A stretch of DNA of 64,000 bases from Mugilogobius chulae. Taxonomy: Eukaryota. Numbering within the stretch: position 1 is the first letter of the stretch; every line of letters begins with the position of its first letter. Shown here piece after piece: positions 11,857 to 12,129 of the stretch. The notes under the pieces are model-generated. The model was not told the DNA's origin, did not search any database, and was given only the letters and a program-made list of their open reading frames with translations. The stretch lies in NCBI GenBank assembly GCA_046056395.1, contig CM100124.1, positions 574,968 through 638,967 on the forward strand, given 5' to 3'. Position numbers and translations under genes: made by a program.

Positions 11857-11966
11857 GACGCTGAGGCCATTTTCCAGTGGCTCAGTGACTTCCAGCTGGA
11901 GCAGTACACGCCCAACTTCCTCAACAACGGCTACGACGTCCCCACCATCAGCCGCATGACTCCAGA
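11857..11966 (+). CDS. caskin1: Caskin exon, first half of SAM domain 1 (carries a 1-bp deletion frameshift as assembled)
   Basis: gttcag|GAC...GAG|gtaata; translates to [28 protein letters not shown], then the frame breaks at gtcccacc (reads PPSAA*); the -1 frame gives PTISRMTPE, matching Caskin SAM1 '[20 protein letters not shown]'. Confidence 0.75.
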
Positions 11967-12129
11967 GGTAATATAAACTACTCTGCTAACGTACTACAGC
12001 TCACTGATCAGAGAAGATTCAGTTATACACACATGACTCCAGAGGTACCCCAGTCTTTATATGAACTACTCTGCTAACGTTAAATATCTTGGTCTTTTTC
12101 TTGATGAAAATATAAAATTTCTAATCACA

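Follow-up and report, generated by a model that had tools for sequence, protein, structure and literature searches.

The 64,000-nucleotide stretch of the Mugilogobius chulae genome analysed here (assembly GCA_046056395.1, contig CM100124.1, positions 574,968 to 638,967; hereafter the window) carries caskin-2 on the + strand at approximately 2.3-36.5 kb and, at its 3' end (60.6-63.4 kb), the first mvp exons. A nested gene on the - strand (17968-21466), intronless in appearance and encoding an E/K-rich coiled coil, lies within one caskin-2 intron. The three genes were identified from stretches free of stops and from protein searches. The best protein matches of Caskin-2 and MVP showed 84-87% identity and came from Oryzias, Sinocyclocheilus and Pampus, and the gene order caskin-2 followed by mvp was also found in Oryzias melastigma (locus L001). 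Exon boundaries were located by tblastn and tblastx against fish proteins and the O. melastigma locus and then by reading the splice signals, which gave at least 27 boundaries, 21 in caskin-2 and six in mvp. Nine of them are spanned by a strong local duplicate, and the association of such duplicates with exon boundaries is real.

To score each boundary, the 60 nt centred on it (+/-30 nt) were compared by gapped local alignment with 400 nt on each side. Strong junction-spanning duplicates were found at the donors of caskin-2 exons X, c, d, g and i and of mvp exon 1, and at the acceptors of caskin-2 exon e, the mvp ATG exon and mvp exon 2. Away from exons and arrays, a duplicate of this strength was found at just 1.4% of positions, as against 9/27 here, for a binomial probability of ~1e-10, and with an all-position null that includes the junction arrays themselves p is still ~1e-3. 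Moreover, of the 11 arrays with a unit of at least 25 bp reported by Tandem Repeats Finder (TRF), seven span a junction, two lie inside coding exons and two are non-exonic, where random placement would put only 1.38 on junctions (P ~1e-4). These results support the preliminary description of this stretch in its claim that the duplications are no coincidence; its count of 10 or more out of roughly 13 boundaries was overstated, since beyond the nine strong cases there are only four or five in which the copy is weak or merely adjacent to the junction.

The junction-spanning features all lie on the + strand, and in the larger ones the repeated unit joins a piece of exon to a piece of intron (a slash marks the junction in what follows). 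At the exon X donor, a 164-bp unit is repeated 2.8 times (2412-2865) and comprises the last 71 nt of the exon, the donor at 2482/2483 and 93 nt of intron. The exon d donor array (13973-15495) contains ~22 copies of a 71-bp unit with 33 nt of exon tail, CCCG/GTAAGA and 38 nt of intron, while the exon i donor array (32878-33301) has six copies of another 71-bp unit, with 23 nt of exon tail, the donor at 32900/32901 and 48 nt of intron. In mvp exon 1, the exon tail and donor (GAGAG/GTGAG) are present in ~12 copies (60681-61614), the first with 80 nt of exon and the later units of ~72 bp, and an additional relic copy lies at ~62432. On the acceptor side, exon e is preceded by ten copies of a 44-bp unit (23937-24371) made of 19 nt of intron tail (ending in AACAG/) and 25 nt of exon head, and mvp exon 2 by seven copies of a 59-bp unit (62548-62960) made of 34 nt of intron tail (ending in GTGTCAG/) and 25 nt of exon head; in both arrays the authentic copy is the last one, with exon starts at 24346 and 62942, respectively. 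The acceptor and head of the mvp ATG exon are also duplicated (60436-60625, including ATGTCTAAGAAGTCAG), with copies 131-134 nt apart. Here the acceptor, a piece of the 5' untranslated region and the first eight mvp codons have been copied upstream of the real start, which places a second ATG in the intron, and a 22-nt pyrimidine-rich array of four copies lies between the two copies.

Frameshifts occur in conserved coding sequence of the window at 60628-60761, ~63320, ~28375 and, on the - strand, 18440-18860. Copy 1 of mvp exon 1 carries two compensating 1-nt indels, the original peptide being intact in copies 2 and 3; the frame of mvp exon 3 (~63320) shifts ahead of GDEWLFEGPG; that of caskin-2 exon g (~28375) shifts within a C-run ahead of PPPPKRLSSVSS; and the nested gene has several frame shifts together with an in-frame TAA. 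Residual long-read indel errors or, for the nested gene, pseudogenisation are the likely causes. Such residual errors would be in keeping with the duplicates themselves having arisen through mis-assembly or polishing of noisy long reads, but sequencing noise cannot place arrays specifically on exon boundaries, shared variants among the units form higher-order patterns, and the same structures occur in an independent assembly of another species, which makes an artefact highly improbable.

Besides the large arrays, the preliminary description had listed five duplications present in only two copies. All the sequences that it quoted are present; two of the duplications are solid, and the other three are decayed or weak, so that the low-copy cases form the weaker half of the phenomenon, with two secure and three suggestive examples. 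The first secure case is the donor of exon c, a SAM-domain exon of caskin-2 that was placed at 11857-11967 by both tblastn and tblastx. Copy 1 (11955-12031) begins with the final 13 exon nucleotides and continues through the authentic donor GTAATA into the head of the intron, and copy 2 (12032-12081) follows head-to-tail with a unit of ~77 nt and a pseudo-junction reading CATGACTCCAGAG/GTACC. The 16-mer CATGACTCCAGAG/GTA is found at 11955 and 12032 and ACTACTCTGCTAACGT at 11977 and 12065; both are exact, lie 77 and 88 nt from their repeats and are absent elsewhere in the window. The copies are identical at 47 of 55 positions with one 11-nt indel, the similarity stopping after ...CTGCTAACGT, and the gapped local score of 55, with the junction covered, is equalled or exceeded by matches covering the centre at ~1.2% of non-exonic positions. 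The sequence that follows copy 2 (from 12082) resembles the tail of a retroelement by eye and gave no Pfam match, and no claim is drawn from it. The second secure case, at the exon g donor (28534-28601), is a perfect 33-bp unit present 2.06 times (100% matches in TRF), in which 14 nt of exon tail are joined to the donor GTACGC at 28547/28548, a junction placed with the help of the reading frames of exons g and h. Its sequence is AGCCACGCCCACAG/GTACGCTCACACCTGCTTT, the copies are contiguous, and the 2-nt microhomology AG is seen at the joint (28534 and 28600).

The remaining three cases are decayed, with indels between the copies. At exon f, the exon tail, a putative donor CAG/GTAAGA and the intron head (25941-25994, exon end 25956) are echoed by a decayed copy at 26001-26041 (CTCCAGCAGCAG/GTAACA...AAACAGTTTAAACAG), with 42 of 47 aligned columns identical and 15 gap positions, the solid part being the 15-mer AAACAGTTTAAACAG (score 24, null p ~0.044). 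This junction is a putative one, placed from the consensus CAG/GTAAGA and a stop just downstream, and the O. melastigma coding sequence is continuous there. For mvp exon 2, mapped by tblastx to the O. melastigma mvp and by tblastn with a Pampus MVP fragment, the exon tail, authentic donor and intron head at 63111-63149 (CTGTACCCCGGGGAGG.../GTATGAACCCTC, exon end 63137, donor GTATGA) are followed at 63160-63226 by a degenerate copy of the tail and donor (CTGTACCCCG..CCCGGGGAG/GTACTGAACCCTC) and then by TGAACCCTCCTGTACGTGT twice (63188-63226). The donor echo itself runs as CTGTACCCCG..CCCGGGGAGGTACTGAACCCTC at 63160-63199 (pair 63117 and 63176; score 26, null p ~0.07). The mvp intron 2 measures only 98 nt and consists almost wholly of small duplicates, one of them with the exon tail, and its O. 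melastigma counterpart measures ~63 nt. Lastly, at the acceptor of exon a (exon start 4261), the weakest of the five, two segments of pyrimidine tract plus AG lie 55 nt apart (4189-4260), GTGTCTCTGTTTCTTTTTAG (4189-4208) resembling GTGTCTCTGTCTCTTCAG (4243-4260), and the match is limited to the tract and the AG, with the exon side excluded (score 28, null p ~0.05). The unit includes the authentic exon end and splice site at 11967, 28547, 63137 and, for the putative junction of exon f, 25956, and stops short of the exon at 4260.

For these three weak pairs only (4189 and 4243, 25941 and 26001, 63117 and 63176), a chance likeness of splice consensus, pyrimidine tracts and small intronic repeats is a serious possibility, even if the less likely one. 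Between ~4% and 7% of the positions lying outside exons and arrays score as high as these pairs (24-28), the 4189 and 4243 match ends at the AG, and CAGGTAA is plain donor consensus. On the other hand, collinear blocks are present on both sides of the junction in the exon f and mvp exon 2 pairs, the surrounding junctions indicate that the process has been active here, and weak matches at four of the 18 remaining junctions are modestly above expectation (binomial p ~0.02).

The preliminary description had also proposed a preference for splice junctions as such, and this is where our results depart from it. Strong local duplicates were found at 20% of positions in the long caskin-2 exons and 34% of positions in the coding sequence of the nested gene, about the same frequency as at junctions (9/27), against 2.5% in introns and 0.4% in intergenic DNA. 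Furthermore, the periods of the contiguous coding-internal arrays (12, 15, 18, 21, 36, 42, 78 and 177) are all divisible by three, which by chance would have a probability of (1/3)^8, or ~1.5e-4, whereas only two of the nine junction units are (164, 71, 44, 33, 71, ~72, 59, ~77 and ~131). This contrast is the signature of a selection filter acting on an exon-centred process, because copies within an exon must keep the frame, while copies that carry their own splice site leave with the intron whatever their length. Two of the coding repeats, 78 bp x 4.2 and 177 bp x 1.8, are single-copy in the O. melastigma and Mugilogobius proteins and are therefore lineage-specific and recent. The junction units reach 13-80 nt into the exon and 19-93 nt into the intron, and their breakpoints are not anchored at the splice site. 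As for the slippage or microhomology-mediated duplication invoked in the same description, the joints are consistent with it, since short microhomologies of 2-4 nt mark them (AACA for exon d, AG for exons i and g, and CC or GACC for mvp exon 1); no microhomology was recoverable at 11955 and 12032, where the right end is lost, nor in the decayed pairs. A splice-site-targeted process is not needed for the pattern.

Such a targeted process would hold that boundary DNA is preferentially broken or stalled and then repaired as a short tandem duplication, genome-wide, for example through co-transcriptional splicing, U1- or R-loop-associated damage, or nicking at nucleosome edges. The very high density of affected junctions would fit, as would the excess of donors over acceptors (six against three) and the 71-72 bp period shared by three unrelated donor arrays, which hints at a structural ruler; in addition, independent arrays whose intron parts are not homologous are present in Menidia and in the window at the donors of the same SAM exons. 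However, the equal repeat richness of exon interiors and the breakpoints without fixed position relative to the splice site argue against it, the junctions of introns that are long in O. melastigma are mostly clean, most Menidia arrays start just past the splice consensus and exclude the junction, and no such mechanism was found in our literature searches. We therefore consider it unlikely.

No junction-spanning duplicates were found at the 38 boundaries examined in O. melastigma. In a caskin-2-like locus of Menidia menidia (L002; GCA_048628825.1, CM109617.1), four of 30 junctions carry strong duplicates, among them both SAM-exon donors homologous to exons c and d, so that the pattern recurs beyond one window, in a second species and an independent assembly. 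The two Menidia SAM-exon donor arrays lie at L002 50577-52116 (CCGCATGACCCCGGAG/GTAAGG, ~12 copies, unit 77-90 bp) and L002 52391-52880 (TTCATCCCC/GTAAGT, ~10 copies, unit 35-66 bp), and their units include the exon tail and GTAAG. Since their intron parts are unrelated to those of the window, they represent independent events. Nearly every intron of the Menidia caskin-2-like gene is long and filled with minisatellites, from a few nucleotides past the donor consensus to just before the acceptor tract. A Scomber mvp-like locus likewise has intron-filling arrays, without exon tails; the mvp-like loci of Scomber and Syngnathus were rejected as mvp comparisons, being paralog fragments.

The size of the introns in O. 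melastigma is informative in this regard. The counterparts of the introns that carry large arrays (c to d, d to e, e to f and i to j in caskin-2, and mvp introns 1 and 2) measure 63-73 bp, and a duplication of 40-160 bp touching an intron of that size necessarily includes a junction. In keeping with this, the intron-derived parts of paired donor and acceptor units add up to ~57 nt for the intron between exons d and e and ~82 nt for mvp intron 1, near the length of one minimal intron. When the window and Menidia were pooled, strong duplicates were found at eight of 15 junctions of minimal introns and four of 39 others (Fisher one-sided p ~0.002). It has been reported that teleost genomes have a predominance of short introns and a bimodal intron-size distribution (PMC9438311, PMC11600626).

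On this evidence, we lean modestly towards small tandem duplications in and around exons, combined with introns that were once tiny, as a better explanation of the junction copies than a mechanism aimed at the splice sites. Replication slippage or microhomology-mediated template switching would copy a segment that happens to straddle an exon-intron boundary, and some of the duplicates would then be amplified into minisatellite arrays through unequal exchange. The two-copy cases would stem from tandem duplications of 33-165 bp produced by the same process as the large arrays, either as nascent products (the perfect repeat at 28534) or as decayed relics (11955, 25941, 63117 and perhaps 4189). 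The extra splice-site copies would always come to lie on the intron side of the authentic site and be tolerated, presumably because the spliceosome uses the exon-proximal site. Indeed, the authentic site is upstream in every donor case and downstream in every acceptor case, and inspection of the exon c, exon g and mvp exon 2 sequences indicates that use of a pseudo-site would bring stops or frameshifts. The concentration at boundaries would then have three sources: tandem duplication is centred on exons and their immediate surroundings rather than on the bulk of present-day introns and intergenic DNA; within exons only in-frame units survive, while junction-spanning units of any length are spliced out; and the affected introns were probably minimal ancestrally (~55-75 bp), so that a duplication of at least 40 bp touching them would include the junction.

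Several observations weigh against this explanation. The sample is small, consisting of one window and two comparison loci, and in the window alone the contrast between minimal-intron boundaries and others (6/12 vs 2/12) is not significant (p ~0.10), while the pooled test uses the same exons twice, once for each species. The explanation offers no cause for the exon-centred bias; GC-richness of the units was rejected as a candidate, as they have ~41% GC by inspection. Long disordered coding regions may be unusually tolerant of repeats, which would inflate the figure for exon interiors. The geometry proposed above predicts neither the six donor arrays against three acceptor arrays nor the 71-72 bp unit of three independent donor arrays (13973-15495, 32878-33301 and 61096-61614), for which we estimate roughly a few percent by chance; by inspection, these three units share no module beyond the donor consensus. 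Exon X, whose intron measures 1.4 kb in O. melastigma, and exon g have junction duplicates with no known minimal intron beside them. The choice of the spliced site is argued by analogy, and the indel errors of the assembly, visible as frameshifts in conserved exons, make array copy numbers and small indels uncertain. Lastly, involvement of the same SAM-exon donors in two species is not explained by small duplications around exons and once-tiny introns.

The exon bias, the donor excess, the 71-72 bp unit and the repeated SAM-exon donors thus leave room for a boundary-associated mutational process. It could take the form of a lineage-specific, genome-wide process in some percomorph fishes, acting at or next to exon-intron boundaries, in which DNA is damaged in connection with transcription or splicing, or at sites set by chromatin, possibly spaced by a ~71-bp ruler, and is repaired into tandem duplications; we hold this to be improbable at present. 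In teleosts, Zinner and Jakt connected changes in structural-variation hotspots and in intron sizes with loss of the aKRAB domain of PRDM9 (PMC11600626), which is a lead rather than evidence for a process of this kind.

Selection could also have kept the extra splice-site copies, as decoy or back-up sites, for the additional U1 binding that they offer close to the intron's 5' end, or as a means of lengthening introns that were too short. In agreement with this possibility, the GT is intact in 22 of 22 copies at exon d, six of six at exon i, ~10 of 12 at mvp exon 1 and all four two-copy donor duplicates, and arrays occur at the same exons in two species. Nevertheless, whole units are 90-100% identical, so that intact GTs require no selection, and one exon X unit has its GT changed to GC while one mvp copy lacks the G. 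A transcript spliced at a pseudo-site would gain sequence that contains stops and is mostly out of frame (TAG is present in the 33-nt unit of exon g), O. melastigma has none of the copies, and the two-copy cases are visibly decaying. We consider retention by selection quite unlikely.

Other candidate explanations were tried and rejected. A mobile element, a target-site duplication or an introner-like element does not fit, as the units match only their own locus, with the sole exception of an 11-mer minisatellite that forms part of the mvp unit, and no element lies between the copies at 11955 and 12032. Dual-specific or recursive splice sites fail as a general explanation, most donors having no AG. 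Intron gain through duplication of an AGGT-containing exon segment was also discarded, given that O. melastigma has introns at the same positions, both behind caskin-2 exons c, d, e and i and behind mvp exons 1 and 2. An intron is required in the window between exons f and g (25957-27834), where O. melastigma has one continuous frame (L001 20202-21353), a difference that could reflect an intron gained or lost as the lineages diverged, or else a mis-reading of the window gene; although this intron has no O. melastigma counterpart, its ends are not copies of one segment, and gain by such duplication was rejected here as well.

Some additional features of the window were recorded alongside these analyses. 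The 11-mer minisatellite TTAGACCTGGT stands free in ~40 copies at 57513-57932 and also occurs directly after several donors and within the mvp exon 1 units (28608-28634, 60775-61611, 62306-62489 and ~63375-63400), with 69 matches in total against 3.9 expected; minisatellites with a similar GACCTGG/GGTCCTG core fill the introns of the Menidia locus and are also found in that of O. melastigma. For the motif GCCACGCCC, 22 occurrences were counted against 0.06 expected (2413-2891; 23960-24364 in - orientation; 28490-28576), and 20 of these occurrences are in or beside the exon X donor, exon e acceptor and exon g donor arrays. A 2.1-kb pyrimidine-rich (TC-type) low-complexity tract extends from 7795 to 9915, up to the acceptor of exon b (9922), and resembles an enormously expanded polypyrimidine tract, and a 0.5-kb AG-rich tract lies at 24758-25247, in the next-but-one intron. 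The nested gene sits in a caskin-2 intron whose O. melastigma counterpart has only 73 bp; its only database relatives are two adjacent M. chulae hypothetical proteins (66% and 46% identity), and a 177-bp segment of it has recently been duplicated in tandem and in frame (19507-19830), where Mugilogobius has a single copy. A weak reverse-transcriptase fragment (Pfam RVT_1, below the cut-off) was detected at 939-1157, and the distance between caskin-2 and mvp is ~24 kb in the window (36530-60590) and ~6 kb in O. melastigma (L001 23437-29688).

The closest precedent is intron 7 of human F7, in which the first unit of a 37-bp variable number tandem repeat spans the exon 7 boundary and several identical pseudo-donors follow downstream, and experiments have demonstrated that only the most upstream donor is used (PMC1557585). 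The donor cases of the window have the same layout, with the authentic donor followed by its copies; F7 is, however, a single isolated human locus, whereas the window has two adjacent genes with approximately one third of their boundaries affected, and acceptor arrays as well, with use of the exon-proximal site presumed. In notothenioid fishes, the antifreeze glycoprotein is reported to have originated from 9 nt of a trypsinogen-like protease gene that straddle one of its intron-exon junctions (as summarised in PMC6410882). Both are teleost tandem amplifications of a short splice-junction-spanning segment, although the antifreeze unit of 9 nt became coding under strong selection, while the window copies are intronic, apparently neutral and 33-165 bp long.

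Tandem duplications are also known to provide splice signals in other settings. Exon segments that contain AGGT have given rise to introns when duplicated in tandem or segmentally (PMC3265369), and tandem repeats such as those of UBC have dual-specific splice sites (PMC10809524); in these cases, as in ours, additional splice signals result from the duplication, and the inserted copy is kept out of the mRNA by splicing. Unlike AGGT-mediated intron creation, the introns of the window pre-exist, their positions being conserved in O. melastigma, and the units are not coding. In arrays of the UBC type each unit would carry an AG/GT that serves as both a 3' and a 5' splice site, and the intron length would be a multiple of the unit, whereas the window has junctions such as CCCG/GT and ACTG/GT that lack the AG, and non-coding units with stops. 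Additionally, the inflation of short ancestral introns by arrays in the window, Menidia and Scomber recalls the micro- and minisatellites that fill percomorph introns (PMC9438311, PMC11600626), which normally stop short of the splice consensus, whereas the window unit includes the exon end and splice site. Overall, our literature searches returned isolated precedents only, and no description was found of dense junction arrays across neighbouring genes in any genome.

Junction arrays also have practical consequences. They disrupt gene models, perhaps including the truncated MVP and Caskin annotations among our matches, and they make long-read polishing less reliable at the ends of exons. If the density observed in this window holds genome-wide, it would provide hundreds or thousands of natural experiments similar to F7 intron 7 on the choice among identical neighbouring splice sites, as well as a visible route for the growth of minimal introns and a stock of repeats derived from junctions, similar to those from which an antifreeze gene once arose. 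Should a boundary-associated process prove true in some percomorph fishes, it would be a main driver of the growth of minimal introns and would keep supplying pseudo-splice sites.

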